From a virus (lineage: Duplodnaviria > Caudoviricetes), in IMG/VR virus record IMGVR_UViG_3300042257_000126, positions 1 to 64,000 of that record: a DNA stretch of 64,000 nt. One strand, written 5' to 3'. Below the pieces are notes generated by a model. The model worked only from the letters and a program-made list of their open reading frames with translations, was not told where the DNA came from and searched no databases. Both the position numbers and the translations under genes were made by a program. This document shows, piece by piece, positions 16,434 to 46,936 of this stretch. Positions within the stretch are counted from its first letter, which is position 1. The number at the start of each line of letters is the position of its first letter.

Positions 16434-17186
16434 TTATAATTGCTTCCACCCTGCCGGGTATGCATCCGGGCTCCAGGTGTTGTTATCAATCAGGCTTTCC
16501 CAGGTTTTGCCATTATACAGAACTTTTTCGCCGGTTTGGTAGGCATCATGTGCGCCAGTGGGTTGTACCCATTCGGTAATTTCGCCGGGTACACGGTATG
16601 CGGTATAGAGGCTTTTTGTGGTTTCGGGTAACCAATCTGCTTGTGAGGTGTGTGTCTGGATAACGCGAAAAAGCAGGCCGTCTTTTACGAATACTTCGTT
16701 GGCTTCGTAGTATTCGTTTATGCGCCACTTCGGGTAAATGGTGGCAAGGTCTGAAAGCTGCTGTTGGGTTACTGAATCACTTTCGAGTACATTTTTTGTA
16801 AGAATGCGGAGCAGGCGTTTCATGGCCATGATATCCATATCGATGTCTATGGCATCGAGAACAGCTTCTTTTTCGGCCTGTAATTCTTCCACTGTTTTAT
16901 CCAGTACCGGGTAAGTAACGGCATCCATGTCCTGGTTGTAATACCGTTGGCCGAGTTTTTGGGTAGTTGGGTCATATTCCGGCACAATTACATCACGCCA
17001 ACCGTCATTATAATGAATGCTATCATGTACATTTTTATACCCACCCCAATAAAAAGTGCCATCCTCGCAGGTAAACTTTTCTGGAATGCCGGTTTGGATA
17101 ATTTCATTATTTTTTATTAATGCTTTCTGCTGGCTGAATGCCGTAACAGAAAGGAAAAGTGATAGTATTAAAAGTGTTGTTTTCAT
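16434..17186 (-). CDS. Signal-peptide protein with C-terminal CBM5/12-like carbohydrate-binding modules
   Basis: MKTTLLILSLFLSVTAFS|Q; QTHTSQADWLP; WVQPTGAHDAY..GEKVLYNGKTWES..NTWSP. Confidence 0.8.
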   Translation of the reverse strand: MKTTLLILSLFLSVTAFSQQKALIKNNEIIQTGIPEKFTCEDGTFYWGGYKNVHDSIHYNDGWRDVIVPEYDPTTQKLGQRYYNQDMDAVTYPVLDKTVEELQAEKEAVLDAIDIDMDIMAMKRLLRILTKNVLESDSVTQQQLSDLATIYPKWRINEYYEANEVFVKDGLLFRVIQTHTSQADWLPETTKSLYTAYRVPGEITEWVQPTGAHDAYQTGEKVLYNGKTWESLIDNNTWSPDAYPAGWKQL

Positions 17187-17198
17187 GTTGTATAATTT

Positions 17199-18092
17199 TT
17201 AATAAGAATATTGTCTAAAATTATCACCTGTATAATCTTGAATAATGATTGTTCTTGAACCAGTATCTATTTCAAAGTCCCACGGATAACTAATACCACT
17301 TGCCTGGTCATTTGTAACATACCTATACGACGAAATACCATATGGGATTCTTAAATTTGCATGATAAAGCATACCCGAAGTATATGTTGTGCAAAAAAAG
17401 TCACAGCCATTATTTATAAACTTTATTGAGGGAATATTACTAATTCCACCTGTTATGTAGGTTGTTAAATCATCCATAGTATATAGTATAATATCGTATG
17501 TTGCACTTTCAATATCATAGGGAGTTGTTAGAACATACCTTAATACCCCAATAGTATTGTCTTGAATTAGTAAATGACTTCCGCTTTCAACAAAACTAAA
17601 AGTATATCCCAAGCTAAATTCGGTAAAATCAATATTTATTGCAGTTCCCTTTGTTGATAAGTCAAAGGGGGTTGATAAAACATATTTTTTAACATCATAG
17701 GTGCTGTTATATTCTAACATGTAAATCATAGTGCCGTCTGCACTAATTAATACATCCTGTGAGTTTTCTATACCTGCTGATAATAAAGTTTGACTGTACA
17801 CCATAGTACTTAAATCCCACGCTGTGGACATAGTATATTTATCAATATCATCTCCCGAGGAACCAGTTAAAAATAAAATCGTTCCATCCTCACTTATACA
17901 AGTCCCACGCCCAGTACTCTCTTGGGTTGAATAACCAAAAAAAGTACCCGTATAAGTCAATGTTGAATAACCCACATTATCACCGCAACTTGCAGTTTGT
18001 ATGCCCGGTATCTGAAATGCCCCAATGCTCGGCACCTGTCCATTACAGGCAAACGCAAAAAATAGACTGATTAATAAAATTAGATTTTTCAT
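17199..18092 (-). CDS. Signal-peptide beta-propeller-like protein (putative receptor binding)
   Basis: MKNLILLISLFFAFACNG|Q; repeats YTMSTAWDLST, YVLSTPFDLST, YVLTTPYDIES. Confidence 0.7.
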   Translation of the reverse strand: MKNLILLISLFFAFACNGQVPSIGAFQIPGIQTASCGDNVGYSTLTYTGTFFGYSTQESTGRGTCISEDGTILFLTGSSGDDIDKYTMSTAWDLSTMVYSQTLLSAGIENSQDVLISADGTMIYMLEYNSTYDVKKYVLSTPFDLSTKGTAINIDFTEFSLGYTFSFVESGSHLLIQDNTIGVLRYVLTTPYDIESATYDIILYTMDDLTTYITGGISNIPSIKFINNGCDFFCTTYTSGMLYHANLRIPYGISSYRYVTNDQASGISYPWDFEIDTGSRTIIIQDYTGDNFRQYSY

Positions 18093-18093
18093 T

Positions 18094-21000
18094 TTAACTT
18101 GCCTCTTTAGTTATGGATACTGTGAAAATTGAACTTGAAATACAGTGAATGTACACGTAAAATGTACCATCTTCCAATGTTGCCGAACCGTCCAGAATTT
18201 TAGCCGATGCTGGCCAGCTTATTGTTGCACCACTTAACGTGAGTACTACTGTTATACTTTTATTTACCTGATAATTTGAGAATGAAACAGTACCGCTTGA
18301 AGGCGTGCAGAAAATTATTCCGTTTGCCGAAAAGTCCCAAGTAAGGGTGTTGTTTGTGGTTGAACTTTTCAGTGTTTCATCCACATTGCCGTAATCAATT
18401 ACATTATCTGCTACTGTTGCAGCAACCGAACCAGTGCCGCTTGCTGTAACTTCACCGGTTAATGCAGTAATGCCATCGCCTCCTGAACTTAACCCGGCTA
18501 TACTGTCTGAAATTTCTCCACGCATTTGGGTGTAAGTAGGAATAAGGGTTGTGTCAACTTTTAGCACATTGCCGCTGGTTCCGTCGCCTGTTAGCGTAAT
18601 GTCTGAGTTTACTACATCATTACCCCAGTTATCTCCACCAGTAAGGATTATATTATCAACTGTAGCATCAATTTCATCAATTGCTGCTTGTACATCAGTA
18701 GCAGTAAGATTACTTGTAGTATTTGTATATGATACTTCTGCTGCAGTTTGGTCGTCGGTGCCCGAATCGCCCCATCGTGTAGTGTCGGCCTCCGTAATTT
18801 CGGTTTTGCTCCAATATCTTGTGCTATCAACACCAATCTCCACACCACCATTACCACCTAAATAAGTAAGAGAAATTCCATCTCCTGCGACCATATTCAA
18901 AGTATCAATGTCTTGATCTACTCGAACGCTGTCAATTAACAAGTCAAATCCTTTTGGAATATATGGCTGTTTGGGGTCACCACTTGAAGTATAATCGCTA
19001 TCGTAATAAACAAACGTAATAGCCGATTCTACTTTCGTAGCCCTTGTTAAAGCGTTGTTAACTACGTACACTTGTCTTTGCATAAACTGTTTTGGGTCTT
19101 CATCGTAGGCATGAAAATACACATAGCCCAAACCACCAACAATAACATTGACTCCTGTGTTAAACACACTTATAGTTACAGGCTGTGCGTGTATATCATA
19201 CACAAAATCGCTTATTGCTTGTTCGTAGGCGTAATCATCACTATACTCGATGGTATTATTCCGTGAAACATAAATACCCATATCTAATCTTGCTTTTACC
19301 GTTCCATAGTCTTCGCCTGCTATCGTAGAAACAATATTATACGACGTTGGTGTGGCCGACAATGGAGTTACAGGTGTAGATTCAAGCGTTATAATAGCGT
19401 CTGTATTGCCCTCTAAAAACTCTCTCCCAGAAGGAACCAAATATGTCTTAAAATCGCTTCTGTAATTCAAACAATCGCCACTGCCTGCTGTTAGGTACGA
19501 TGTGGATTCAAACACCTTAGTAACGTTGTTTTCGTCGTACACCCACCAATACGGGTCTGCTACACCAAAACCATGATGTGCATCTTCTCCTAACGAACAT
19601 GTGGTTGCTGTCCACGCATCATTGTCAAACCCCGAATGGTCTGACCTGATTTTCTTGTAATAGATTCTATCGTTAACGTCACTATACAAAACTAAGTATT
19701 CATCACCATCAACAACGCTCGTAGCTGCTGTTATATCATAATTCGTTACAGTACTTCCGTAAAACACGGGTGTTGGACTTGCCGATGTCTTATTTATATA
19801 ATACGCTTCTCCTCTTGATATAGCGTATATGCCATCACTTGCACCTATTAGCCACTGTATTTCGTTGTCTGCTGCTGGCAAAACAATGGTAGTATCGTTT
19901 TCTATGTCGTATCTATAAACAGATGTTCCACTGGCCGTCCAGATATAATTTTCCTCTGAGTATGATTTATTAGCAGCCCAGTCAGCCGTTGGTGCATTAC
20001 TTAAACTCAACGCTGTGCCTTCTGATATATCATAAGAATACAAATAACCCGAAAAAGCAATATAGGCATCTGGTTCGTGAATAAACCTATCGAGCGCAGA
20101 AGCAATATGAACCCTTCCCGGACTTGCATAGCTCAATACTATGTTCTTTCCGGCAACTAAATTAAGCGTATCTATGCTTGTTTCCTGCAAGGCATTATTT
20201 ATAAATAAATCTACACTTGGATCAACATCGCTTAAAAAATCTTCTACGTGAAGTTTGTAATGAATCCCTGCGGAAGCATCATAAAAAGCAAACCAGTCCG
20301 CAGCATTATCAACTGTACTGACAAAGGCAGGCAACGATGGGATACTTACAGCCAAGTTTATATCATTTTCCATAGAACCACCACCTGTCAATCCAGTTCC
20401 TGCGGTTATTGTTTTTAATGCCAAGTCTAAATCAATGGTGCTATCACCTGACGCAAGATTGACAGTAAGCAAGTCCGTCAAAGAAGCAATTCCCCTAAAG
20501 TCGAGTATAGTGTCTGTTTTTTGTTCAAACACCCCCACGCCACGACTATTAACATTCCTCGCAAGGTTGGTTTCCCCAAAACCAGAAGGTAAATCCTGCC
20601 ATACGGCAGTATCACCCGAAGCCACTAAGTACATTCCAGCCACAGCACCACCATTGTAGATGTTGGTATGACTTAGGCTGTCTTTGTCTATAAAAATATA
20701 CCCGTAAGTATTAATATCTCCCCCAACGTTCAAATCAAACGAATCTACCAATGCGGTATTTATGTGAACCTTCGTGCCGTAATCTTCGTTGTTGTAAATA
20801 TAGACACCATCGTTTAACCAATACCTTTCTAATCCTTCAAGGTCTAACACCTTCCACGTAAACTTAGCATCCGAAGATACACGCATCCATTTATCGGTAG
20901 CTGATGGATTTTTGCTCCATGTTACAGAATCGGAACTGAACTCATGGTACGTCACATCTGTCAAATAAACCGTTGTATCAGCCGACTTCATAAAATCCAC

Positions 21001-21114
21001 GTCAACAATAAGTGAATCCTTAGCCCGTATTAAATTATCGTAATACCCAAATATGACTTGACTATTAGAAGCCACAGCCAAAAACATAAACGCTATAAAA
21101 AGTATTTTCTTCAT
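18094..21114 (-). CDS. Tail fibre/spike-like protein with signal peptide (start reassigned to 21114)
   Basis: MKKILFIAFMFLAVASNS|Q directly after a -7 box at 21129-21136; fibre-type motifs AGTGLTGGG, LTATDVQAAIDEI, LTGDGT. Confidence 0.75.
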   Translation of the reverse strand: MKKILFIAFMFLAVASNSQVIFGYYDNLIRAKDSLIVDVDFMKSADTTVYLTDVTYHEFSSDSVTWSKNPSATDKWMRVSSDAKFTWKVLDLEGLERYWLNDGVYIYNNEDYGTKVHINTALVDSFDLNVGGDINTYGYIFIDKDSLSHTNIYNGGAVAGMYLVASGDTAVWQDLPSGFGETNLARNVNSRGVGVFEQKTDTILDFRGIASLTDLLTVNLASGDSTIDLDLALKTITAGTGLTGGGSMENDINLAVSIPSLPAFVSTVDNAADWFAFYDASAGIHYKLHVEDFLSDVDPSVDLFINNALQETSIDTLNLVAGKNIVLSYASPGRVHIASALDRFIHEPDAYIAFSGYLYSYDISEGTALSLSNAPTADWAANKSYSEENYIWTASGTSVYRYDIENDTTIVLPAADNEIQWLIGASDGIYAISRGEAYYINKTSASPTPVFYGSTVTNYDITAATSVVDGDEYLVLYSDVNDRIYYKKIRSDHSGFDNDAWTATTCSLGEDAHHGFGVADPYWWVYDENNVTKVFESTSYLTAGSGDCLNYRSDFKTYLVPSGREFLEGNTDAIITLESTPVTPLSATPTSYNIVSTIAGEDYGTVKARLDMGIYVSRNNTIEYSDDYAYEQAISDFVYDIHAQPVTISVFNTGVNVIVGGLGYVYFHAYDEDPKQFMQRQVYVVNNALTRATKVESAITFVYYDSDYTSSGDPKQPYIPKGFDLLIDSVRVDQDIDTLNMVAGDGISLTYLGGNGGVEIGVDSTRYWSKTEITEADTTRWGDSGTDDQTAAEVSYTNTTSNLTATDVQAAIDEIDATVDNIILTGGDNWGNDVVNSDITLTGDGTSGNVLKVDTTLIPTYTQMRGEISDSIAGLSSGGDGITALTGEVTASGTGSVAATVADNVIDYGNVDETLKSSTTNNTLTWDFSANGIIFCTPSSGTVSFSNYQVNKSITVVLTLSGATISWPASAKILDGSATLEDGTFYVYIHCISSSIFTVSITKEAS

Positions 21115-21142
21115 GTTTCTATTTTTAGCAAAGATACAACCT

Positions 21143-21625
21143 TTACACGAAGGATATATTTTTGCCTGTTTCAAACAGATACCACTCTGCTTCACGCCGC
21201 TTAACTAATCCGTTTAGCTTCACACCGCCTGCCGTAATGTAAGTTGACAACCACCAATCTTTTATGTTACCCCTTTCATTTACCAACCTGAACAGCGTTT
21301 CCGATCCACCTGTATTGTAAGTATGTGAAACAAGTGCATCGAACTCATGTTGTTTCAGTCCTTTTGTGTTCTTGAGTACAATCGCTTCATACCGTGGCAG
21401 GTCTTTCTTCAACAACGCCTCGGCTTCTTCTTCTGTTATCGTCATTAGATTTGGGTACTTCTTTGCCAGTTCTTCAAGACTGCCTTTCCCAAGTGCGTGT
21501 CCGTATCCTACTGTCCACACGCCGGCAGGACAAAGTTTCGGTTGTAGCCCAATCTTCGTTAAGTCTCCGTCGTGGGTTCCCTCAAAAAATTTTATAAGCT
21601 GTACGCCGTTTTCGCTTGTTTTCAT
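21143..21625 (-). CDS. Lysozyme (GH24 endolysin)
   Basis: IKFFEG...CPAGVWTVGYGH...FDALVS..YNTG...GLVKRREAE. Confidence 0.93.
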   Translation of the reverse strand: MKTSENGVQLIKFFEGTHDGDLTKIGLQPKLCPAGVWTVGYGHALGKGSLEELAKKYPNLMTITEEEAEALLKKDLPRYEAIVLKNTKGLKQHEFDALVSHTYNTGGSETLFRLVNERGNIKDWWLSTYITAGGVKLNGLVKRREAEWYLFETGKNISFV

Positions 21626-21692
21626 GCGTTATTTTATTTGAGTGGTATATTTTATCGTTTGCGTAGAGATCGTTGCTCAGATCGTCTTAAAC
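21618..21692 (-). repeat. Dispersed tripartite element, copy B
   Basis: Similar to 13235-13308; overlaps the lysozyme start. Confidence 0.65.
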
Positions 21693-21756
21693 GCCCTCTG
21701 ACAGCAAAAAGGCTGCCGAAGTAGCCCTGAATGTTTCTAATAGTTCCAAAGGTGAA

Positions 21757-22446
21757 CTAAATCACATACGGTTCCCAATACCTGTTATAAGGTATATCAC
21801 CATCGGGTTTAGTTGTATTAGCATTTATTTTATTTATCCATAATCCATCTTCTAATGTCGGATAATGAACAATAACGCCTGTTGCATAAGCATCATGCGC
21901 CCCGGTAGGTTGTACCCAAACCGGATAATCTTCTCCTGTATGTATTTTCGTCCATATTGCAGGAACTAAATCAGGTGTTTGCCCTTCCACTGTCAAGGTT
22001 TGACCCGCTCCTGTAAATTCGTACTGTTCACCATTATATACTCGCTTCCATCCGGGTTTTACATACTCATTTGGAATCCATTCTAAATCATCTGAATTTT
22101 CACGGAAATAAGTAAATAAAGTCGGTACAGTTTCCGGGTCAAAGTGTGCGTATTCTTCCCTATTGTGGTCTGAGGCAACAATTAACAAGTGCGAATAAGT
22201 TCCTTCATATCGGAAAATAGTACCCTTTGTAACCATGCCAGTTTCCGGTAATTCAACTATATCCTGAACATCACCGTTTGCCGCTTCAATCTTTACCTTT
22301 GCCTCTGACAAATCTTCATCTGACAAACAACGTTCAGGAATGATATAATTTCCGTCAGGTAGTGGGATAGGCTCAATTGCGCTATACTTGCCGTATCTGC
22401 CTTTAATTTGCTCGGCTTGTTGTGCTGAAATGATTATATGACTCAT
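21757..22446 (-). CDS. Protein with a C-terminal CBM5/12-like module
   Basis: WVQPTGAHDAY motif shared with 16434-17186; no signal peptide. Confidence 0.7.
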   Translation of the reverse strand: MSHIIISAQQAEQIKGRYGKYSAIEPIPLPDGNYIIPERCLSDEDLSEAKVKIEAANGDVQDIVELPETGMVTKGTIFRYEGTYSHLLIVASDHNREEYAHFDPETVPTLFTYFRENSDDLEWIPNEYVKPGWKRVYNGEQYEFTGAGQTLTVEGQTPDLVPAIWTKIHTGEDYPVWVQPTGAHDAYATGVIVHYPTLEDGLWINKINANTTKPDGDIPYNRYWEPYVI

Positions 22447-23704: not shown

Positions 23705-23770
23705 GTTCTATTTTTTTACAAATATATTACTATTATAGATTATTATCCAATAAGCCACACACACGTTTCA

Positions 23771-26119
23771 TTAATTCGATTCTCCGTATGTTAGCATTAC
23801 ATAGGTATTCGTGCCATCACTCACACAATCAAACGCTATCGAAGTGGTCTTATTCAGCGTTGACGATACGATTCCAAACTCTATTTCTGTTAGCCCAGTT
23901 AACCCCGCATCAGAAAATGTGTTGACTGTTATTCCGCTTGGATTAGTAGCGATATTAAGATATATCACACCACCAACCCCACTTGAAAGATTATGGATAT
24001 TCACAACCAACGCACCTGCGTTATCTACCCGATACGCTCCTACGTTGCCATTCATTACATCGTGGGTTATATCACCTGTCTCTGTCCCGCTTAACACGTC
24101 TTGTTTTAACATCTGAACAGTTAACGTACTGTCAAAATCAGCCGTGTTAGCACTGGTATTTCCAATCGCCAGCACATCATCCAAACTTTGAGAATTATAA
24201 TCCGTACCATCCACAGCAGCCGAAATACTCCCTGCACCGTTCGCTTTTACAATTCCATTGACTGCCCCAACGATAGGGTCTGTTTCCGCCTCAAGAAACC
24301 CTGTTATAACAGCATCAACACTCCCACCCGCATCTGTAACCGCAATCGTGTTTGTGCCATTATTCCAGCTCATTCCCGTGTTCAATTCATTGGTTGTTGA
24401 CCCGTCCACCTCTGTCGTCAAGTAGTTTTGGAGATCAGATATTTGGTTTTCTGTTATGAGGAAACCAGTTGTGTCGTAATCAGCAATCAAAGTGTTTAAA
24501 ATAGTATCACCCCCTATAAACAACGTGTCCAAGCTAAATGTAACATAAGTAGAATCTACCGTAGCACTAATATAAGGAGTAGGATCGTCATAAGTAAAGC
24601 TAACATGTCTCGTGTCTGCCAAAATATACCCAACAGCATCTTGTGCTTGTTCGTCTGTATAACCCCCTGCACCAATAGTCGTGCTATCCACGTAAGCCTT
24701 TGATGCCAATATTAAATTGTCAGCAAGACCTGGTGCTTCTTTTTGTATGGCTATGGCGGTGTCCCCTGACAGAAATAATGTATCCACAGACACCCACGTA
24801 AAAATAGAATCAATGCTACCTAAATTGGTTATCTGACTTTGATCTATTCTAAACCCAGTGGTGTCGTAGTTCGCTATTATGTTGTCAACGATAGTATCGC
24901 TCCCCACGAAAAGAGTATCTGTGTTTAGCCACACAAAAGTCGAATCATAACTTGCAGACAACAAATAAGCAGAAGCCGCCACGCCACCCAACGAATCTGC
25001 ATCAGGTGAGTTTATTACCGTCAACTCCTGATTGATTACTGTTATCGTAGAATCGTCCACACTTTGATTTAGGTATCCTATCGTAGTGTCTGTCGCGCTC
25101 GCATATACCCGACCAATATCTGCCACAGTTGACAACAACGAATCCACGTTTCTTATCGCAATATAATGCACCCACGCTGAATCAATAACCGATAAAACCT
25201 TAAATCCATCTGTCGCTAAACTATCGTACTGTAAGTCCTGTCTGTTACCGTTATCCAAAACAGCATAAAGAGAAGCCATGATATAGTCAGCGGCAGGTAG
25301 CGGTGAACTAAATTCTATATTCGTATCACCCGATGCTACCCTCACTGTATCTGTTCGCCAGTAATCATTTTCCCCGTTCACAGGGTCTAACGTCAAGTCA
25401 AGATACACTTTCCCTGCACCTAAATTCTCCAAGTGATCAGCCGGCACAACGAGTTCAACAACGTTTTCCACCGAAGGATCGTCATCAATCTCCGAAACAG
25501 TCAGTTCACCCGACGCCCCTGCACCAATCAAATCAGGGTGTGGCTCCCAGTTGCCTGTAATCTCATTGTACTTTAACACGTACCCATCTGCCACGCCTGT
25601 CGTGTCCACATCTTCGTTGTCACCTATATAGATAACCAATTCGTGTGTGTGTGTCAACGTGTCCTGATAGTTCACAGTAGAACCTGTTATTGTGTCTGGC
25701 TGTGGTATCTTAACAAATTCTCCCACCAACACGGTATCCACTAAAGTTCCATAGTCCACAAAGATTGTGTCAACGCTGCCACCACCCTCTTGTATCGCTC
25801 CGTTGCAGGTACAGAAGTTAAACACCCACCAGTCATCGTGATAACCCGACAGTCCTGTATAGGGATTGGTTGTGTTCGATGTCGTATTGGCAAACCGAAT
25901 ATAACAATCACCTTCTTGGAAGTCTTTTCTCCACGTTAGCGAGTCCGCACTAAATTCGTGGTAGGTTATATCCTGAACGGGTGTATAAGTCCCCTGATAG
26001 ACAAAATGCAGATTCGTCTGCAAAATTTCAATCGCACGCACGTACCTCTCCACAAGTCCTTGTGCGTTTGTTACGACCGTAACCATTACCAGTATAAACA
26101 ATATCCAAAGTTTCTTCAT
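23771..26119 (-). CDS. Tail fibre-like protein with signal peptide and internal repeats
   Basis: MKKLWILFILVMVTVVTNA|Q; DGYVLKYNEITGNW, YTDEQAQDAVG, ITENQISDL, ETDP, LDDVLAIGN fibre-type motifs. Confidence 0.75.
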   Translation of the reverse strand: MKKLWILFILVMVTVVTNAQGLVERYVRAIEILQTNLHFVYQGTYTPVQDITYHEFSADSLTWRKDFQEGDCYIRFANTTSNTTNPYTGLSGYHDDWWVFNFCTCNGAIQEGGGSVDTIFVDYGTLVDTVLVGEFVKIPQPDTITGSTVNYQDTLTHTHELVIYIGDNEDVDTTGVADGYVLKYNEITGNWEPHPDLIGAGASGELTVSEIDDDPSVENVVELVVPADHLENLGAGKVYLDLTLDPVNGENDYWRTDTVRVASGDTNIEFSSPLPAADYIMASLYAVLDNGNRQDLQYDSLATDGFKVLSVIDSAWVHYIAIRNVDSLLSTVADIGRVYASATDTTIGYLNQSVDDSTITVINQELTVINSPDADSLGGVAASAYLLSASYDSTFVWLNTDTLFVGSDTIVDNIIANYDTTGFRIDQSQITNLGSIDSIFTWVSVDTLFLSGDTAIAIQKEAPGLADNLILASKAYVDSTTIGAGGYTDEQAQDAVGYILADTRHVSFTYDDPTPYISATVDSTYVTFSLDTLFIGGDTILNTLIADYDTTGFLITENQISDLQNYLTTEVDGSTTNELNTGMSWNNGTNTIAVTDAGGSVDAVITGFLEAETDPIVGAVNGIVKANGAGSISAAVDGTDYNSQSLDDVLAIGNTSANTADFDSTLTVQMLKQDVLSGTETGDITHDVMNGNVGAYRVDNAGALVVNIHNLSSGVGGVIYLNIATNPSGITVNTFSDAGLTGLTEIEFGIVSSTLNKTTSIAFDCVSDGTNTYVMLTYGESN

Positions 26120-26124
26120 TATTT

Positions 26125-26712
26125 CTATGTATCTAATTCTGCTACATAATTAAGTGTTCCTGCCTCCAAAACATCATCATACACGAACCCGCTTGCGTAC
26201 TTCGCACTTACAACGATATTTCTCTGTTCGTATCCCGATGCTGTTTTTACATATACAGTAAGCCTGTAATTAGAACTTGCCAACGGCGAAGCTACTCCGT
26301 TTTTAATAAACGTTACAGTTCCGCTTCCTGCTGATACAGCAACTTCTCCTGCACGATAATGGTCGTCTGTTGTAGAATCAGTTCCGGGCACACACGTTCC
26401 ACTATCTCCGTCATCTGTTACCACGTTTGAGTAATCAGACAAATCTACGTCTGAAAATATGCCGTTGTAGTGCCATATCTTCCCGTTTAACGAAGCCAAA
26501 CTTGCACCTGATAGTTCGGTATCCCCAACGTATAAAAGTCCCCCAGATTCTCTTATTTCGCTTAACACGCCCCACAGGTAGTGTAATCTCAAACAGTGAT
26601 CCAGTATATCCGAAATCTCATCCGTGCCATTGAACATTGCATCTACCAATCCATTGCTGTACTGAACAAGTACACTGGCACAGTTTTCTTTTATGTATTC
26701 AAACTTAGTCAT
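26125..26712 (-). CDS. Hypothetical structural protein
   Basis: 195 aa ORF in the late operon. Confidence 0.7.
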   Translation of the reverse strand: MTKFEYIKENCASVLVQYSNGLVDAMFNGTDEISDILDHCLRLHYLWGVLSEIRESGGLLYVGDTELSGASLASLNGKIWHYNGIFSDVDLSDYSNVVTDDGDSGTCVPGTDSTTDDHYRAGEVAVSAGSGTVTFIKNGVASPLASSNYRLTVYVKTASGYEQRNIVVSAKYASGFVYDDVLEAGTLNYVAELDT

Positions 26713-27217
26713 ACTGCAATATTTGTTTTAACAGGGCAAGCCTCGAAGTGAAATCCACGCGTTTCTGCAACGTCGGGTCTTGATCTTCGATAGCGTCCAT
26801 CTCCGCAACGAGCATGTGCGCTGTGTGAAGCACCCTGTCAATCCGAAAGTCAGGTGCATACACATCAACGAATCCATGTTTACTGTAAACTTTTCCCTTA
26901 GCGGTCAGCGTGTACCCTATACCTGCTTTGTTGGACAGATAAGCATCACTATCCCCTGACAGTTCAAGTGAATAGAAATCGTCTGCCACGCTGCTGCCGA
27001 TAACATCTGACACCGCCAAAGACACTTCTCCATCTGCTTTCAGCGTTGCCAGTTCACCCGCTGTGAGCGTGTAGGTATTGTCTGCCGTTGAAAGGTCGTC
27101 TGAGTAAAGGTTAACAACCATAGACGACACGCTGGTCAGGCTTGTGCTATCTGTTTGCTTAACGGTAATTTCCGTCTGAGCCTTATTCTTTGAACATTTA
27201 ATTTTAAAAGTTGCCAT
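26705..27217 (-). CDS. Hypothetical structural protein
   Basis: 170 aa ORF overlapping both neighbours. Confidence 0.7.
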   Translation of the reverse strand: MATFKIKCSKNKAQTEITVKQTDSTSLTSVSSMVVNLYSDDLSTADNTYTLTAGELATLKADGEVSLAVSDVIGSSVADDFYSLELSGDSDAYLSNKAGIGYTLTAKGKVYSKHGFVDVYAPDFRIDRVLHTAHMLVAEMDAIEDQDPTLQKRVDFTSRLALLKQILQYD

Positions 27218-27740: not shown

Positions 27741-30700
27741 TCATTGAATAATTTCTGCATCCTTATCATATTTCACAGGAAAATCCTGTGATGCTGCAAA
27801 CACAGCTTTCTTGGCATTATCGACAATCTCCCTCCATGACTTATCCAAAAAGTCAACCATCTCCTGCCCTTCCAAACCATCATTTGCTGCCTGCTGAACA
27901 GCTTTCTCAAAAGCCATTCCAATTGCCTGATCGTAGTCGTTAAACAACTCTACCTCGTTTCTCCTGCCGAAACCTCCCTTTAATTTTCTTCTAACAATAT
28001 TACCGTCTTCGTCATATAGCAAAAACGATGTGTTATTCATTTCGTGAATAGGGCGTTTGTACCCATTATTAAGATAATACTGAATCAACGGATTCTCCTT
28101 ACTGTTGCCAATAATCGACTTAACAGAAAAAGCAGCCGGTATTTCGTATCCAAACACGTCTAACGCCGTTCTCCCGAATGGCTTCACCTTGCCATAAAAC
28201 GGTATGTATTGCAACAACTTTTCATATCCTGTAATGGCAGTCTTGTGTGGTTCTCCATTTACGGTGTCCCATATATCTTCAAAATCACTAAACACACGTG
28301 GAACAGGTATAAACCCCGTTCCCATGCCTCCTGTAAGTTGAAGTAACTTATTAAAACCATCATCTCCCCCTTTGGTTATATCAAAGAAAGCATCTGTCAA
28401 TTTCCTTAATCCAAATATAGGCGTAGTTTCCAATATAAGCGGAATACTAACCAACAATCCTTCGAGAAACAGTGCCATATCCGATTTTTCGCTACCCTGA
28501 TACCTCTGCTGATCCCTCATGTACCCAATAGCCATCAATGGGGGGGCAAATTGGCGAAGCAAGCGATAGTCAATATGGAAATCCTTTTCGCGATTAAAGG
28601 GGTTTGTAACAATAATAGAATACTGCCTCCATCCAGTCGGTTCTAATTCTTTTTTGTTTCGTTTATAATCACCAGTGCCATTAAGCGTAATCTGCAATAC
28701 AGGGTCTTCGTCATCCTCTCCGGGTTCTGTTAATATGTACAACAGGGTATATAGTGTGGCAAGCTGCCATATCCATCTTTTAGATGTCGTTTTTTCCAAC
28801 TCAGTCATTTCAACCCTATAAGGATCGTTTTTACCCAAAAATATTCCATACCTGCCCTTTCTCGCACGATCAATAGCGACCAACAAATGACCGCCCAATG
28901 CACCTGTGGCAACGTTAGCAACTATACGGGTAAATGCCATAACTAATGCCAGTGGCTTAACCTTAATTTCCTTTCCTTCCTGAAAAGTAAAAACAGGTCG
29001 TCCCTTTTTGGTTATGTTTTTTAGTTGGTAAATAGGCTTTCTGAACGTCGCTTCAACTTTTCGTAACATTTGATTAGACGCCACAGTAACCACTCTTCCA
29101 ATAAGCCCATACGGAGCGATATTACCCAAAGTCCTTCCTGCTATATCATACGCATCTTGAACAATGTTAATCGGTCTGGCCTCGTTAATCAGCTCATAAA
29201 CACGGATAGCTTTTCCCATTTTGGAGTAACCTGTTCGTGGTTCTCCCAACGATTCTTGCAGGTCGGCATATTCTTGTGATTCTTTTTCAACCTTCGCCTC
29301 AATTGTTGCACGTATGTCCGGTGTCAATGCCAACTTTATGTCAATTTCCTTCTGCACTTGTCTTCGCAATTCCTTTGTCATTTTCTGACCATAATGTGAG
29401 GCCAACACCTCTCTTGTAGCCATTACGTCTGCCGCTACTTCCTGTGCAGACGCATAAATAAGTGAATCGAATCCCGGAAGCAACCTTAAATTGTACTTCA
29501 ATGCGTTCTTGTACCAATTCAAAAGTGTCATATTCACCTTGCCTATTATACCGCTACCCTCTGCTGCTGCAAAATCACCCCTTTCCAAAATACCCGGAAT
29601 ATCGAATCGTTTCTGAATAGGGGTAACGCCTGTCCACATCGTCTCTCTAAGCCGAACACCGCCCTCTTTCCAATATCCCCTAAAGTGAGCCAATATAGCA
29701 CGTTTTAACACCATCGGGTTAAGTCCCGCCATCTTGAAAGTTTCTACCCAAGAACTAATGTAAGCCTCAAAATAGTTCTTCGTATGAGTTCCCATGCCAA
29801 ACAAAACATTACCGTACCAAAACCCAATCGCTACTTCTGCCGGATCAACCTTTTGAAGCGAATACACATACGACATCAACCTCTGTGCATTTTTGTGGCG
29901 TTCCTGTGGGCTTTTGGTTTTCTGAACTAACATAGAAAGATTCTTTATTCTTGTTTTTTCCTCTGAGGTTAAATTCCTAACGCCATACAAATCCAACATT
30001 AATTCGTTACCCTCGACGGTATCAAGAGCGCCTATGTTGACCAATTCAATAAGCCTTGCTACTTCGTCTTTGTGTTCTTTTTTTGTTTGCTTTTTGTTTT
30101 TCTTTCCTAAGTACCTGTCAACTATTTTTGTTCCCTTTTCGGCCATCAGGGTATTAAACGCATTATCAATCACATCTGCCAACTCCTGTGCCGCTTCCCC
30201 ATCAAGTCCGGCTCTTTTCTGTAAATCTCTTATAAGTTGTTGTTTGTGTAACTCCTTGCGATCGTAATGATCCCTGACAACATCGTCAATCGAAATGTTT
30301 TGTTCTCTTAACGTATCCCGGATCAACTGTTGAACCTGCCGTTCAGACACAGAGAACTCAGTGGCATTTTTATAAGCCTGAGCCACTCTTTCTTTGTACA
30401 ACTCTTTTTGTTCAGCAGACAAATCTTCGTTCCCGTCAATCAGGTCATCAACTTCTTTCTTGGCTGCCTTCCATACACTCATGTATTTATCCTTGTTGAC
30501 AATAGCCTCTGTAACTATGTCAAGGGCTGATTTTCTTTTTGGCTTTTCACCTTCTTCTGCTCTTTCCTTAAATTTAGACACAAGGACGTTAACCATTTGC
30601 AAGACCGGATCATCCTTCTTTGTCTTTTTGTCAGCCACGTGTCCAAATTCTTTTAACGCCAACCTTTCAGCGGCCTCTTGTATCGCCTGTTCTTTTTCTA

Positions 30701-38071: not shown

Positions 38072-38073
38072 AA

Positions 38074-38838: not shown

Positions 38839-38839
38839 A

Positions 38840-39262: not shown

Positions 39263-39300
39263 ATTTTTAACACAAAGATACAATGTTAATGTATCGCAAT

Positions 39301-39329
39301 AAAAAAAGCCCCGTTACAAGAACGAGGCT
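39301..39329 (-). terminator. Intrinsic terminator
   Basis: AGCCTCGTT..AACGGGGCT plus T tract on the - strand. Confidence 0.7.
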
Positions 39330-39381
39330 AAAAAACCAAATGAATATGAAAAAATCTCCCACTACAAATATACAAAACAAA

Positions 39382-39741: not shown

Positions 39742-39825
39742 AATATTTTGTTTACATGACAAATATACAAAACAAATCCTCATCAACAAAACATTTTACA
39801 AATTATCAGCAAAATACTTTACAGA

Positions 39826-42800
39826 TTACCTGTTAACAGTAAATCCTGCCGTTGCTAATCGTAACTGAAACTCAGTCGTTCCATCATCTTCAAACGTAAT
39901 CTCAAAGTAACGACCCGTCATATCCACGCCTGAATGTATCAAACTTAAATCTTCTACGCCACCTGCCCTTAAAATATTGCTATACACAGCCGACGTGTAA
40001 CCACCTTCTCTCAATCTAAACGATTCAGGGTACAACACAGTTTTTTGCCCTACCGTTCTTGTACTTGTAACAGGCGAAGTAATTATAACGTTTGCCGCCC
40101 TGTTTGAATCCGTTTGAAGCGATCTGAGGCACTTTTCTTCGTTGGGGTAGGTATTTAATAGTCCAGTTACAGAAAGTGGCTTAGAATCGCCAAAAAACAC
40201 ATTGTACGTCGTTCCTGACTCAAACTTCCATACATAACCAGATTTAAGCCCTATCGTCAGCGTATCCAAGTTGCCGTAACAATCAACAATGTTTCCAGAT
40301 GAATCCGTGTAGTCCCTGCGTTCAGTCCAAACATTTGCACCTTCTTTAAAAACCCACGATTCAGCAGTCCCTCTTATATCAAATGTAATAACAAACTCAT
40401 CGTTTTTTAAATCATAGTGCCCCAACACAACAACGCTTCTGCTATCAACGGATAACGCATCGTCAATGTCTCTTTTTATACGCAGAAACTCAGATTTCAT
40501 GTTGTAATCAGAAATAGGTATCTGTCCGTTAGGAGATGAACGTATCACCTGACCCCTGTCGTTATCCCAATAGTACAAATCACGATTGTTCTTTACGACA
40601 CTCAACGGAAACCGTGTGCCATATTCTGTTTGCATAGGATAAACAGTACCGATAAACTCATTGGTGTTCACAAGGCTCAACGTGCCGTCTGCATTGCTTA
40701 TCTGCTGCTTGCCTATGTACATGGACGTTTCCTTGTTGTCCTGAATCACTTTCAACACATCACCAACCAACTTAATACGCTGTATCTGTCCGTCTTTTTC
40801 ATCTAACTGTTTTCTGTTGACAGCCGAAAAGAAAGATATTCCGTTTATTTTTGTGTTGTCTAAATAAGGTTCACTCCACACGAAATCCTGTAAGTTAACC
40901 TGACCTTGTGTGTCGAACTCTACAAGCACACGACCCCTGCTCCACGCACGAATACCGTCGTCAACATTTATATAGAAATCTTCTACGGCCTCAGTGGTAG
41001 TTACTTTCTTCGGTTCCGTTTCAGAACCATTAAAATATTCAAACTTCCTTTCAACAAACCACGCATCACCCTCTCCTACATATCCGGTTGTCGTATTAAA
41101 CCCTGTTGCCGAAGTATCGTAGGTTGTGAAATCTTCGTAGTAGATTAGATTTTCAACTTCTGACTTCGGTCTGTATATGTACGCCACAGAATCAAGGTAA
41201 TCAGCAACGGCTTCTTCGCCTTTTGGAAGTATCAACCAAAACCCTGAGTATTCTGTTCCACTTACATCAATCAATGTACGTGTTCCAATTATAGTTTTTA
41301 CTATCGTAGTTATTTCTGAACCCGAATCTTTTTCAAGTTGAACGTAATCTCCTTTGGCAAACTCATAGCTCAGATTCTCAGGAAGCCGAATGGCTATCAC
41401 TTGTTTGCCGTCAATAAACACATCATCAAACGCGTTTTCACCTGCTGTGTTCCCCGTAACAAACGGATACACACCTGCAAAGTTCACCGACTCTGTAACA
41501 GCAAACCTGAACCTCGTAGCCCAACTTGGTACGGTCGGACTGTTCAGCGTGAATTTTATCCTTGCTCTTTTATTTCTGTCTGCGTAATCTCTTTCACCGT
41601 TGGACGGAATGTAAATACGCTGTGGACTTAACACGCCCGATGTTCGGCTTCTTTCATCATAAAACACACCGCCTACGTTATAATAGCTTCCAGACTTATA
41701 TGTGGCAACCCCTTCTGGCACTGTTTCAACAGTAAACTGAGAACCACGTGTTCCTGCTCTTGTTTTATAAGACCCATCGGTCACTCCGGGTGCATCTCCA
41801 CCAGAAGCACTATAACACCCAACAACTGCTAACGTAATATCATATCCACCATAGTCAGCAACTCCTTGTATCAAATAATCCGTACCATACAAGGCCGTGG
41901 CAGTTTCAAGGTCTGTTGATATAAATTCTGCATTATTATTTATGTCATTAATAATTGCGTTCTTAATATCAATTTGTGTATCACCATCCGCAACAATATA
42001 AGAAAAAGAATATCCGAGCATGAAATTATAACGCAATGAACTCCAGTATTGCTCATAAGACCGAGACAAACCAACATTAATCACAGTTCCAACAACCGGC
42101 ACATCAGGAACATTAAAAGAAACATAAAACATATTCATTCCCGCATCAACCCCATACGTTGAATCCAAATCAGAAGAATTTCCACTAACATAAACATCAG
42201 CATACTCCACCTCAACAGAAAAATTAAAATCTGTCTTATCGTACCCTTTTGTTACATTTGCCAATCCTATCCTATTCTGAACAGCAACAACGGTCTTTGC
42301 TTTCAACGGCACATCGCTGTACAACGCCAACGCTTTATCTATCGGTATAAACTCTCTGGCTCTATCATTGTAAAACGAAATAGTCCTGCTTGTTTCGGTA
42401 GATGCTTTGTCGTACTCATCAACTTTAAACCAACTTCCCGTGTTACCCTCTCTTGCCAATAAAACAACAGACTGAACATCTGTACCACCTAAACCATAGG
42501 ACACAGACAAATAATTACCAATGTAGTTGTCTTCATAGGTATTATCTTCTGCTGAAAACACGGACGTACTCACCGCTACCTTGCTGTAAGGCGACAGAAC
42601 AGAGTACGTGTAATCATTATAAACAAAATAGGTAGCAAACTGAAAGGTCTTTCCTATTAATTTGTTTATTTTTCTCGAAGAATCACTTCCTACAACGAAC
42701 TCAGGTGCATCAACGGGGTGCTTGCGTGCTAATTGAATAGAATCAGATGTTACAGACGACAACGAGCCAGATCCTACACGGGAACTGCCGTTTCCAACAC

Positions 42801-43215
42801 GAATTTTGCGTGGTGGATTTAAACCATCCGTAAACACACACCAATCACCCATAAAAGCAGCATCAACTAAATATTCAGGATTGAAATTAAGAACACCGCT
42901 CTGAACACCTAAATTAATAACGCTATTTCCGGTAAACAAATAAATACCGTCGTTGCCATTGGAATTATAGTTAAACAACACGCCGATTTCTCGTTCCTTA
43001 TCTTCTGCATATCCTACAAAAATATTAGTTCCAGAAGGTAGATTTGCATTCACGGAAACCATGCTCGGTATCGACACATTAACACCAACACGCCCCCCAT
43101 CAGCCGAATGTACCCTGCAATTCTGCCTGCTCAAAACCTCTCCCCTTGCCGTGTCTATCAACAATGGGTGTACGTCCTTATTTATCCCGCCGTTCATCGG
43201 CATTAATGCTTTCAT
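39826..43215 (-). CDS. Tail stabilisation/muzzle protein (crAss/P22 gp10-like)
   Basis: 1129 aa; GGINKD N-terminus, FTDGLNPPRKI, FQFATYFVYND.TYSVLSPYS, YYWD; follows the ring genes. Confidence 0.8.
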   Translation of the reverse strand: MKALMPMNGGINKDVHPLLIDTARGEVLSRQNCRVHSADGGRVGVNVSIPSMVSVNANLPSGTNIFVGYAEDKEREIGVLFNYNSNGNDGIYLFTGNSVINLGVQSGVLNFNPEYLVDAAFMGDWCVFTDGLNPPRKIRVGNGSSRVGSGSLSSVTSDSIQLARKHPVDAPEFVVGSDSSRKINKLIGKTFQFATYFVYNDYTYSVLSPYSKVAVSTSVFSAEDNTYEDNYIGNYLSVSYGLGGTDVQSVVLLAREGNTGSWFKVDEYDKASTETSRTISFYNDRAREFIPIDKALALYSDVPLKAKTVVAVQNRIGLANVTKGYDKTDFNFSVEVEYADVYVSGNSSDLDSTYGVDAGMNMFYVSFNVPDVPVVGTVINVGLSRSYEQYWSSLRYNFMLGYSFSYIVADGDTQIDIKNAIINDINNNAEFISTDLETATALYGTDYLIQGVADYGGYDITLAVVGCYSASGGDAPGVTDGSYKTRAGTRGSQFTVETVPEGVATYKSGSYYNVGGVFYDERSRTSGVLSPQRIYIPSNGERDYADRNKRARIKFTLNSPTVPSWATRFRFAVTESVNFAGVYPFVTGNTAGENAFDDVFIDGKQVIAIRLPENLSYEFAKGDYVQLEKDSGSEITTIVKTIIGTRTLIDVSGTEYSGFWLILPKGEEAVADYLDSVAYIYRPKSEVENLIYYEDFTTYDTSATGFNTTTGYVGEGDAWFVERKFEYFNGSETEPKKVTTTEAVEDFYINVDDGIRAWSRGRVLVEFDTQGQVNLQDFVWSEPYLDNTKINGISFFSAVNRKQLDEKDGQIQRIKLVGDVLKVIQDNKETSMYIGKQQISNADGTLSLVNTNEFIGTVYPMQTEYGTRFPLSVVKNNRDLYYWDNDRGQVIRSSPNGQIPISDYNMKSEFLRIKRDIDDALSVDSRSVVVLGHYDLKNDEFVITFDIRGTAESWVFKEGANVWTERRDYTDSSGNIVDCYGNLDTLTIGLKSGYVWKFESGTTYNVFFGDSKPLSVTGLLNTYPNEEKCLRSLQTDSNRAANVIITSPVTSTRTVGQKTVLYPESFRLREGGYTSAVYSNILRAGGVEDLSLIHSGVDMTGRYFEITFEDDGTTEFQLRLATAGFTVNR

Positions 43216-45242: not shown

Positions 45243-45259
45243 CGTATCTTATTTTAACA

Positions 45260-45318
45260 CAAAGATACGCATGAAAGGGTACAACACAAAAAAAGCCCCA
45301 CTCCAACGAGCAGGGCTT
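45260..45318 (-). promoter_or_regulatory. Terminator (45288-45318) followed by a TATCTTTG -7 box (45260-45267)
   Basis: Hairpin plus T tract, then the Bacteroidota -7 consensus upstream of ATG 45242. Confidence 0.7.
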
Positions 45319-45337
45319 GCACTACGAGAAGAAACTA

Positions 45338-46372
45338 CTATGCAGACTTGGGCTGATATTCCAATTCCATATATTCACACAATTTTTTCAATAAATCTTC
45401 TTTCTTGTCGCTGTTCGTGGTTGTCAACCCCCTGTCGTTTGCCATTCGCATTAACGTCGGTCGATCTAACTCACGTAAGTCGTCAAGATTATAACTTTCA
45501 TCTTCACCCATAGCTGCAAACAATCGACTCTTAATGTTAGAGTTGTTAATCACCTCCTGAATGAACACTTCGTTTCTGTCCTCAATTTCATCTGACTTGA
45601 ATCCCATCAGCTTCTCAGCATATTCACGTCCTTCTTTCAACCACATGGCTCTGTCTTTATAGCCAACAATGCCATCCTGAATAGCCCTGCGTGCAACAAA
45701 CGCTGCCTTGCGCTTTTGGTTACCTTCTGTCAGTTCTTCAAATTTCTCAAAGTTAATAAACCTGTCTTTTCGTTTCTGTCCGTCAAGGATAGTATTATAC
45801 AGGTCTAAACGCACTTCATCAATACTACGACGCTCTACGTCCTTAACACCAAAAATCTCTGCTGCCTGTTTGATGAGTGTTTTGTCTTTGGCAATGGGTG
45901 ATGTTTTACCCATGATCATGTACTTAATGTCAGCATCACTTGACATTACCTCAATTTGTTTCTTGGCTTCTTCTTCCAAGTTCTCAATCACAATACGTCC
46001 TGAACGAACTGCGGATGCCTTGTATTCCAAGAACCACACAAACTCAATGTCCTTTTCAGTATAGAACGTTTTCCACGTCACAAACCTGTGGTGGTCGTCG
46101 TATTCACGCTGACCGTTCTTAATTCGTGGTCTGCTTTTTGAATACCGCCACACACCGTCAGGGCTTGTTAGCTCAATCGGGAACTTCTTCAAAACACCAA
46201 ATGTTCTGAAATCTCCTTCCGGTCGTCCCTTCGGATAAATGAGTGTTACTTTTCCTAATGTGTTTGGTGAGAAATACTTGGCCTGAATTTTTTCCATCTC
46301 CTTCTTGACCTGCATGTCAATGTCAGATCGCCCATGTTTCCAATTAACTTCTTCGTCTAAATAGAAAATCAT
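45338..46372 (-). CDS. Capsid-region hypothetical protein with a C-terminal Rho-N/HeH-like motif
   Basis: 344 aa; LRELDRPTLMRMANDRGL...KKEDLLKKL. Confidence 0.7.
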   Translation of the reverse strand: MIFYLDEEVNWKHGRSDIDMQVKKEMEKIQAKYFSPNTLGKVTLIYPKGRPEGDFRTFGVLKKFPIELTSPDGVWRYSKSRPRIKNGQREYDDHHRFVTWKTFYTEKDIEFVWFLEYKASAVRSGRIVIENLEEEAKKQIEVMSSDADIKYMIMGKTSPIAKDKTLIKQAAEIFGVKDVERRSIDEVRLDLYNTILDGQKRKDRFINFEKFEELTEGNQKRKAAFVARRAIQDGIVGYKDRAMWLKEGREYAEKLMGFKSDEIEDRNEVFIQEVINNSNIKSRLFAAMGEDESYNLDDLRELDRPTLMRMANDRGLTTTNSDKKEDLLKKLCEYMELEYQPKSA

Positions 46373-46429
46373 ATCTGCATATTTTAGTTTCTTCTACAAA
46401 AAAATGGAAGGGGGACTAAGCCCCCTATC

Positions 46430-46936
46430 CTATTTCACAAGTTTAATCTCTAATTCCTTCAATAGTGAGTTCTGCGTGCTGTCTGTTTCAGCTTCTACAT
46501 AAAATCTGTAAAAGCGATACGGCTGAACAGTTGTGGAATTCACGTACAGAGAAGTATCTGCGCCTGTAATACTCGTTACCGAGGCAGTATCAATTCCTGT
46601 CCATGAATCATCCCAGAACGTCTTGCCTTGCAAGATAGCACTAAACGCGGCTTCACCACTTACTGTATCTACTTTAAAACGCGTGTACACAGCTAATTTG
46701 TCATACAAATTGTCAATGGCAAAGGTGTACGCAAAAGTAGAATCAGCTACGCTGGATAACGTATCGGCAGAAGAAAAATACTTATGCCAATAGGTTACAG
46801 GTGTTGCAAGCAAATTACCTTTCACATCCAGAACAACATCAACGTCGTTCTTGTGATTGGTAATGTTGTCAATAGTCTGTCCGTAGCTAATAACTGCGAA
46901 CAGCAACGATGTCAATATGAAAGCTATTCTTTTCAT
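46430..46936 (-). CDS. Signal-peptide protein directly after the major capsid gene (decoration-like)
   Basis: MKRIAFILTSLLFAVISYG|Q; PYRFYRF beta-sandwich ending; overlaps the capsid stop. Confidence 0.75.
   Translation of the reverse strand: MKRIAFILTSLLFAVISYGQTIDNITNHKNDVDVVLDVKGNLLATPVTYWHKYFSSADTLSSVADSTFAYTFAIDNLYDKLAVYTRFKVDTVSGEAAFSAILQGKTFWDDSWTGIDTASVTSITGADTSLYVNSTTVQPYRFYRFYVEAETDSTQNSLLKELEIKLVK

Follow-up and report, generated by a model that had tools for sequence, protein, structure and literature searches.

Predicted signal peptides before glutamine and Bacteroidota-type O-glycosylation motifs in late proteins of an uncultured tailed phage

In tailed phages, virion assembly is considered to take place entirely in the cytoplasm, and virions to lack glycans unless the phage supplies the enzymes itself. 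Cleaved signal peptides on virion proteins are known from the filamentous Ff phages (pIII and pVIII), which are assembled at the membrane by extrusion, and virion glycosylation is known from mycobacteriophages, which encode their own cytoplasmic glycosyltransferases. Decoration proteins, e.g. lambda gpD, T4 Soc and Hoc, and phage L Dec, are able to bind mature capsids in vitro. The present study concerns IMG/VR virus record IMGVR_UViG_3300042257_000126, a single 73,569-bp contig (record type virus), the first 64,000 bases of which constitute the window, i.e. the whole stretch of DNA analysed. An earlier note had listed five late-module genes that begin with signal peptides ending before Gln. 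Four of these proteins and a sixth one are predicted to be exported and to expose Gln, and three are rich in the O-glycosylation motif of Bacteroidota, namely two fibre-like proteins and the small product of the gene that immediately follows the one for the major capsid protein.

Substrates of Bacteroidota signal peptidase I obey a Gln rule, with Gln at position +1, as stated in two reports (PMC5837995, PMC10653852). The phage proteins share with them the n-, h- and c-regions of the signal, small residues at -3 and -1, and Gln at +1 (invariant in one family), and differ in being encoded in the structural, late module of a lytic tailed phage; cleavage and cyclisation would follow. The O-glycosylation motif of the phylum, D-S/T-(A/I/L/V/M/T), hereafter termed sequon (PMC8550257), is modified in the periplasm and on non-cytoplasmic proteins only, and engineered or foreign motifs are glycosylated as well, according to a review (PMC12871550) that does not contain the word 'phage'. 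Like known O-glycosylation substrates, the phage proteins bear signals and are sequon-rich, with a conserved Asp and a third residue varying within the permitted set; they differ in sequon density (up to 3.4 per 100 residues, 3-4 times the expectation from composition) and are known from sequence alone.

Signal peptides, the Gln rule, the O-glycosylation motif, decoration proteins and fibres are thus familiar, and phage-encoded Gln-rule proteins have been described once, in prophages of P. gingivalis, where the signal is likewise predicted to expose Gln (PMC10367356, passages found). Those are accessory genes of temperate phages, of unknown function and read as modifiers of the host surface, and sequon enrichment is not reported in these passages; the proteins described here, in contrast, are fibre-like or linked to the capsid gene and conserved in the structural module. 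In Cellulophaga phage phi40:1 (Pervagoviridae), which has a related genome type, gp085 and gp087 are large modular fibres near the lysin with a common N-terminal domain, both found in virions by mass spectrometry (MS; record annotation). Peptidase_S74 occurs in this fibre system and in a homologue of one of the fibre-like proteins studied here (D). The phi40:1 fibres, however, have no signal peptide (N-termini MARIKNT...), and no sequence similarity to either fibre-like protein (C or D) was found by tblastn against deposited phages.

The late genes are all located on the minus strand, in the order terminase-like, portal-like, scaffold-like, major capsid, 1129-amino-acid (aa) structural protein, 2882-aa giant protein and endolysin. 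The proteins with signal-peptide-like N-termini are here named A to F (the arrow marks the position before Gln or, in the lipobox, before Cys):

16434-17186, minus strand: A, 250 aa; predicted signal at residues 1-18 (17133-17186), Gln at +1, C-terminal CBM5/12 domain; N-terminus MKTTLLILSLFLSVTAFS↓QQ
17199-18092, minus strand: B, 297 aa, probable lipoprotein, beta-propeller-like, FAFA↓C with Cys16; N-terminus MKNLILLISLFFAFACNG↓QV
18094-21114, minus strand: C, 1006 aa, fibre-like; ATG at 21114, predicted signal at residues 1-18 (21061-21114), Gln at +1; N-terminus MKKILFIAFMFLAVASNS↓QV
23771-26119, minus strand: D, 782 aa, fibre-like; predicted signal at residues 1-19 (26063-26119), Gln at +1; N-terminus MKKLWILFILVMVTVVTNA↓QG
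46430-46936, minus strand: E, 168 aa; predicted signal at residues 1-19 (46880-46936), Gln20 at +1, mature part a predicted jelly-roll; N-terminus MKRIAFILTSLLFAVISYG↓QT
14632-14967, plus strand: F, 111 aa, at the end of the early/middle operon on the opposite strand; predicted signal and Gln; N-terminus MRTLLLFLLLSWGATA↓QV (GATA↓QV)

All five open reading frames (ORFs) of the earlier list, A to E, were found at their coordinates with such an N-terminus followed by Gln; the ORF of C is also open further upstream, to a GTG at 21195, where it overlaps the endolysin gene. Signals were called by a simple rule of our own, combining n-, h- and c-regions with the -3/-1 rule, across 468 six-frame ORFs of at least 40 aa from the whole 73,569-bp genome. 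The 13 ORFs passing this rule comprise the five listed ones, F (absent from the earlier list), two encoding small membrane-protein-like products and five in apparently non-coding frames. A permitted cleavage site followed by Gln occurs only in A to F and in none of the other seven. Gln accounts for 3.5% of the proteome, and five out of five by chance has a probability of ~5e-8. The hydrophobic cores, 12-15 residues, have the length of a signal peptide and not that of a transmembrane helix.

Under this heuristic, A, C, D, E and F display the hallmarks of Sec/signal peptidase I substrates (basic n-region, core of ~7-15 residues, small uncharged residues at -3 and -1) together with the Gln at +1 of the Bacteroidota rule. 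The claim of signal peptides ending before Gln held for A, C, D and E and is amended for B, where a lipobox, FAFA↓C, fits better and Gln is only at +3 after Cys16. Lipoboxes end in an invariant Cys after the hydrophobic core (PROSITE-type rule), and this Cys is retained in the two closest N-terminally complete homologues, P0086 and P0089 (LWS↓CNGQ and AVS↓CIGQ). Since the lipobox fits and its Cys is kept, B is more likely a lipoprotein than a signal peptidase I substrate exposing Gln.

The combination of signal and Gln is conserved beyond this genome. In all 25 homologues of D, a hydrophobic segment is followed by Gln at the equivalent position; 19 of them pass the strict signal pattern, the remainder being N-terminally truncated (4) or having one charged residue in the core (2). 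In the family of C, signal and Gln are present in 6 of 7 homologues. For E, 43 relatives were detected among 1.84 billion representative proteins, of which three low-complexity repeat proteins and one multi-domain F5/8-type-C protein were set aside. By inspection, 38 of the 39 fetched small members have a hydrophobic N-terminus followed by Gln; 34 of the 39 pass the strict pattern, one of them falsely (P0039), and the five that do not pass are truncated or carry a Lys close to the site. An alignment of 34 rows (omitting one signal-less, one N-terminally aberrant, one fragmentary, one chimera-like and two truncated sequences) contains only two invariant columns, Met1 and Gln20. Judged from these sequences, the signals vary in sequence and not in character, as expected of cleaved signals. 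Four related IMG/VR genomes fetched for comparison (G001-G004; the context of the present genome is G000) retain the entire structural module; homologues of E and D follow the capsid gene and the giant protein, respectively, and all of these homologues bear signal and Gln.

An independent marker of export was sought in the sequons. A to F harbour 49 sequons in 2,506 mature residues, compared with 42 in 20,384 residues of all other ORFs, i.e. a ~10-fold higher density. Relative to composition-preserving shuffles (2000 for D), enrichment is pronounced in D (26 sequons versus 6.55 expected; none of 2000 shuffles reached 26) and also found in C (15 versus 7.79, p 0.01) and E (5 versus 1.33, p 0.005). 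D-S/T followed by a non-permitted third residue is depleted in both fibre-like proteins (D, 2 versus 8.4 expected; C, 3 versus 11.3). The late signal-less proteins have 30 sequons in 10,149 residues and, when pooled for the shuffle comparison, are at expectation (31 versus 30.5), and the major capsid protein has 2 sequons in 475 aa. Across the 25 homologues of D, 413 sequons contrast with 128 expected in total, and 24 of the 25 are individually enriched at p <= 0.018. Among the 258 proteins of at least 100 aa in the five related genomes, 11 reach p <= 0.02; eight of these, including the top seven, are signal-bearing members of the D, C and E families. A signal-less 418-aa head-module protein of G004 contains 7 sequons versus 2.6 expected.

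Conservation of the sequons is equally marked. In the 34 rows of the E alignment, four sequon columns are occupied in 29, 27, 25 and 26 rows, with Asp nearly invariant (at least 90% in three columns) and the third residue varying inside the permitted set; on the sequence level, the sequons are the most conserved feature of this family. In the D family, the sequon columns at reference positions 117, 128 and 326 are occupied in 18 of 18 sequences. C, D and E thus unite a predicted non-cytoplasmic location with the sequon, as O-glycoproteins do in sequence, and would be expected to carry glycans. The export to the periplasm proposed in the earlier note is strongly supported by the conservation of signal and Gln in the D, C and E families and by the enrichment and conservation of sequons.

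The same observations bear on a quite different explanation, in which the hydrophobic N-termini serve in assembly or tethering, or are cut off by a phage protease, and the D-S/T-hydrophobic tripeptides are fold motifs of beta-rich proteins. It gains some credit from the signals having been called by our own heuristic rule alone, from repeated segments within D and C, and from the suggestion, in the passages found of PMC10367356, that prohead proteases remove some 'signal peptides' of phage capsid proteins. Yet the N-termini, while varying in sequence, keep their charge, core length, small -3/-1 residues and invariant Gln, and are therefore read as cleaved Bacteroidota signals and not as structural segments. 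Six control motifs (reversed, with Glu or Asn replacing Asp, and others) occur at expectation, and the phi40:1 virion fibres, of similar composition, are not enriched (gp085, 5 versus 5.1; gp087, 1 versus 2.9). P0039, the E homologue without signal peptide, has lost most of its sequons, with one of the four conserved ones left (by eye, n = 1). Membrane-anchored proteins adjoining the lysins of other phages are enriched as well:

L002 3436-4035: phi40:1 gp084, membrane-anchored protein adjoining the lysin; 3 sequons versus 0.33 expected
L031 10392-10937: elemoF, membrane-anchored protein adjoining the lysin; 3 sequons versus 0.76 expected

These spanin-like proteins may be glycosylated, too. 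The structural-segment explanation is consequently regarded as very unlikely, and cleaved export signals on sequon-bearing proteins as the preferred one.

Whether E belongs to the virion is addressed by its gene neighbourhood. The capsid gene follows the portal- and scaffold-like genes, and the ATG of E overlaps its stop codon (TAATG):

46936-48363, minus strand: major capsid protein, 475 aa, no signal peptide; phrog_13704 'virion structural protein', E-value 9e-12

This capsid protein shares 20% identity over 300 aa with the MS-detected gp093 of phi40:1. In 10 of 10 contexts the capsid gene is immediately followed by an E-like gene, namely in G000-G004 and in five other, unrelated head modules from IMG/VR:

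L035: PF05065 capsid gene, then E-like gene, then connector-like gene
L036: Mu-like protease gene, then phrog_267 major head protein gene, then E-like gene
L037: S78 protease gene, then gene with a weak capsid match, then E-like gene
L038: S78 protease gene, then PF05065 capsid gene, then E-like gene, then gp6-like connector gene
L039, a myovirus-type module: maturation protease gene, then gene for a 331-aa protein without family, then E-like gene

The capsid gene was identified by position alone in L039 and by position plus the weak match in L037. Locus searches with the single E-family queries P0057 and P0053 found nothing. The AlphaFold2 (AF2) model of E is a jelly-roll with a predicted local distance difference test (pLDDT) score of 86. 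Fold searches returned generic jelly-rolls alone (VIA Z 8-10, at most 9.8, to CBM, TNF and viral folds; Foldseek TM-score at most 0.54), and the naming of a specific family for E from its fold was dropped. E resembles known decoration proteins in being small and encoded beside the capsid gene, and binding after capsid maturation is mechanistically possible; those proteins, however, are cytoplasmic and unglycosylated, whereas E has a predicted signal peptide and conserved sequons, and its capsid binding is putative. A predicted complex of the capsid protein with mature E (residues 20-168) scored 0.00, which speaks neither for nor against binding. What supports the term 'capsid decoration protein' of the earlier note is gene position, the single line of evidence for it and a strong one.

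The fibre-like proteins C and D share a modular layout. D consists of a conserved N-terminal region of ~370 aa and a variable C-terminus; its 25 homologues cover 26-56% of D from the N-terminus and differ in length and C-terminal domains. Homologues of C have the same layout of conserved N-terminal and variable C-terminal parts, with Fib_succ_major C-termini, and distal domains of D and C homologues include C1q, Peptidase_S74 and Fib_succ_major. The first 80 residues of C and D are paralogous (37% identity, E-value 9e-10), and this common N-terminal domain is presumed to be the docking end. Given the conserved N-terminal parts and variable C-terminal domains, 'fibres' is a reasonable designation for both. 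ESM Atlas neighbours are head fibre and fibre-repeat clusters, with a score of just 0.86, and searches of PDB sequences with D, C and the capsid alignment gave no matches. D comes after the giant protein, a synteny maintained in G001-G004, and a C homologue is present in G004. The latter genome, which is complete, encodes a C-like protein of ~995 aa (L019; G004 54857-58000, minus strand), the true start of which, with a signal, is inside a longer ORF; over its first 77 residues it is similar to the N-terminus of E, and it contains 21 sequons versus 6.1 expected. Two conserved signal-less genes always precede D in G001-G004:

26125-27217, minus strand: two genes, encoding proteins of 195 and 170 aa

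The products are possible docking or adaptor partners of D. The C-terminal domain of the 195-aa protein (26125-26712, minus strand) is weakly similar to D residues 251-321 (pairwise E-value 0.003; 3e-5 in the comparison with the G001 orthologue), the sole part of D modelled confidently by AF2.

With the D alignment as query, a scan of 185,579 prokaryote species, each represented by one genome, yielded a single match, on a 21-kb contig of a metagenome-assembled genome. This genome is labelled as a Thermoplasmata archaeon; the contig (L032) gives no clue to the host and most likely comes from a phage and was misbinned. The rarity of matches in prokaryotes argues against the genes being host-derived passengers (morons) riding on late promoters without any role in the infection cycle, as do the phage-like size of the contigs carrying homologues and the retention of position and signal over deep divergence. 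Speaking for passengers, compared with phi40:1 and elemoF, in which the gene after the capsid gene encodes a different, signal-less protein, E represents an insertion, and it evolves faster than the capsid protein (33-37% versus 46-66% identity to G001-G004). On balance, passenger status is considered very unlikely, and a role of the exported proteins in infection is favoured.

What this role may be depends in part on the lysis region, in which three of the six genes are located:

21143-21625, minus strand: endolysin (Phage_lysozyme), no signal; PF00959 E-value 6.9e-25, phrog_7; N-terminus MKTSENGVQLIKFFEG
15673-16421, minus strand: two small ORFs that close the late operon, no family match

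The endolysin is without a signal, and lysis is therefore taken to be holin-dependent; the ORF at 15673-15993 is a holin candidate on account of one hydrophobic helix (MELLFLNISEWAMGGVAVAVAGVIVTFFRKKG). Residues 212-248 of A match PF02839 (CBM5/12; E-value 6.9e-11, 42.4 bits versus a cut-off of 26.2). A signal-less 229-aa protein (21757-22446, minus strand) resembles the C-terminal CBM5/12 region of A over ~95 residues (33% identity, E-value 3e-6); a single genome therefore contains this module both joined to an export signal and lacking one. ESM Atlas neighbours of B are viral SGL/lactonase propeller clusters (0.94-0.95), and F has no family match. A C-terminal sorting domain of the type IX secretion system (T9SS; Por_Secre_tail or type B) was found in none of A to F with Pfam and NCBIfam. 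Family scans of the genome revealed no phage-encoded glycosyltransferase, which sets it apart from the mycobacteriophages, and no signal peptidase or glutaminyl cyclase either; any processing would therefore be done by the host.

From this region arises the most serious alternative, to which we assign somewhat less than even odds: the proteins are exported and probably glycosylated, yet act in the envelope of the infected cell and are not part of the virion. They could aid exit beside the endolysin, bind or mask receptors and so prevent loss of progeny on debris, or exclude superinfection, and the modularity of the fibre-like proteins would then reflect ligand binding and not virion attachment. 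Phage envelope proteins have precedents in T5 Llp and in lambda Lom and Bor. C, B and A are located between the endolysin and the holin candidate, A has a chitin-binding-type CBM5/12, B is a probable lipoprotein, and cultured relatives make virions without such proteins. The prophage Gln-rule proteins of P. gingivalis were also interpreted as envelope modifiers, in the passages found (PMC10367356). An envelope role is, however, hard to square with the E-like gene following the capsid gene in all ten contexts, unrelated head modules included, with D belonging to the conserved structural module of all five genomes, and with the N-terminal domain common to C and D, which is reminiscent of co-docking fibres. 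Moreover, receptors on the outside would be beyond reach with no T9SS domain and a lipid anchor on B alone, which also weakens the second proposal of the earlier note, that the proteins act on the surface of the infected cell.

Attachment to the virion is set against the envelope role as the preferred reading, with the following course of events. Late proteins of this Bacteroidota (Flavobacteriia-type) tailed phage would leave the cytoplasm, A, C, D, E and F by Sec translocation followed by signal peptidase I cleavage before Gln, and B as a lipoprotein. Host glutaminyl cyclase would convert the exposed Gln to pyroglutamate, and the general O-glycosylation system of the host would modify C, D and E at their sequons in the periplasm. 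The exported proteins would wait there until lysis, because none of A to F has a T9SS domain and only B a lipid anchor. Once the holin opens the inner membrane, they would meet and bind the DNA-filled particles built in the cytoplasm: E, a small jelly-roll protein co-expressed with the capsid protein, the mature capsid, and D and C, as modular fibres, the tail or head via their common N-terminal domain.

Confidence decreases along this chain. Export is very probable and glycosylation probable; a place of E on the capsid is somewhat favoured, and for D or C on the particle the odds are about even. Attachment to particles at or after lysis is what we infer, in line with the earlier note, and the chain as a whole, i.e. 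export, cleavage before Gln, O-glycosylation and binding after holin opening, is given a probability of roughly 0.45. More tentative still is the broader notion of a group of tailed phages that finishes its virions outside the cytoplasm with a coat of the host's species-specific O-glycans, each copy of E offering four conserved sites and a fibre chain as many as 36 sequons; at the same tentative level, the E module would have spread among unrelated head types, always being kept after the capsid gene.

Several points weigh against this reading. The phage is uncultured and represented by its sequence only, the rule used for signal calling is crude, and none of 50,697 deposited phage genomes matches D or E, so that there is no virion proteome to compare. 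The arrangement of C, B and A in the lysis region fits lysis or exit roles as well. Sequon enrichment is absent from A (2 versus 0.82), B (0 versus 2.0) and F (1 versus 0.18), and three signal-less proteins in the five genomes reach p <= 0.02, approximately the number expected by chance. The sequon count of D stems in part from one internal duplication, and the shuffles ignore repeats and the kinship of homologues. The AF2 model of D (18-row alignment) has a pLDDT of 40 and is unusable, and a trimeric fibre architecture is hypothetical. We know of no precedent for post-lysis attachment in tailed phages, and it looks inefficient unless it takes place inside a still-closed outer membrane. Finally, the nearest cultured relatives, phi40:1 and elemoF, build their fibres without signal peptides, and a scan of the cultured Cellulophaga phage phi12:1 found no structural proteins with signal and Gln; even among phages of these hosts, a route through the cytoplasm is therefore the rule.

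The remaining late module and its surroundings place the phage among its relatives:

54255-56567, minus strand: terminase-like gene
49537-51927, minus strand: portal-like gene, with the scaffold-like gene next in order
39826-43215, minus strand: gene for the 1129-aa structural protein
27741-36389, minus strand: gene for the 2882-aa giant protein

No close relative was found among deposited phage genomes: megablast with 20 kb of the window gave no match, tblastn against deposited phages none for the capsid protein, D and E, and the fibre-like proteins D and C have no homologue there. The 1129-aa protein matches 79 phage records at ~25% identity and is the sole link of the genome to cultured phages; 78 of these records are from phages of Flavobacterium, Cellulophaga, Tenacibaculum or Maribacter, and the remaining one names no host. 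Because of these matches, the phage, which is uncultured, is classified by sequence as a distant podophage relative of the Pervagoviridae and of Elemovirus podophages, with a member of the Flavobacteriia as the most likely host. The giant protein is homologous by position to giant virion proteins of phi40:1 and elemoF and hence probably a polyvalent ejected protein. Weak matches below the cut-off to ART-PolyVal (residues 1049-1101) and to a metallopeptidase toxin domain were noted in it.

Additional features were observed in the genome. An AT-rich island at 52001-54200 (GC content 0.32 versus ~0.41), with small ORFs on both strands, is an insertion between the portal-like and terminase-like genes. 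Genes for tRNA-Met (CAT) and tRNA-Thr (TGT) adjoin at 12904-13054 (plus strand), the latter being overlapped by the listed ORF 12996-13220. A 230-aa protein (58025-58717, minus strand) ends in a Cpn10 (GroES-like) domain; GroES and GroEL are annotated in phi40:1 and elemoF. Overall, the 73.6-kb genome encodes five DNA methyltransferases, three of the N6_N4_Mtase, one of the MT-A70 and one of the D12 class, which suggests heavy investment in anti-restriction:

390-1103, 1475-2059, 2599-3381 and 3540-4172 of the window, and L033 87-773 (genome 64087-64773): DNA methyltransferase genes

In the open-access literature and bioRxiv, no report was found of Sec-exported fibres or decoration proteins, or of conserved signal-bearing head-module or fibre-like proteins, in tailed phages, nor of sequon-rich phage proteins or an exported family linked to the capsid gene, the closest being the P. 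gingivalis prophage study (PMC10367356, passages found). Even if not part of the virion, the E family constitutes a widespread, unannotated head-module gene, and the sequon test offers a simple, checkable marker of periplasm-facing phage proteins in this phylum, virion parts or not. The observations suggest that maturation of some parts of a tailed virus may take place outside the cytoplasm. If the proteins are virion parts, the periplasm, host glutaminyl cyclase and general O-glycosylation would join phage morphogenesis, and host glycosylation mutants would be predicted to alter phage stability or host range. Phages of Bacteroidota, hosts that are dominant in gut and ocean, might then bear glycans of the host, with effects on adhesion, immune recognition and decay.

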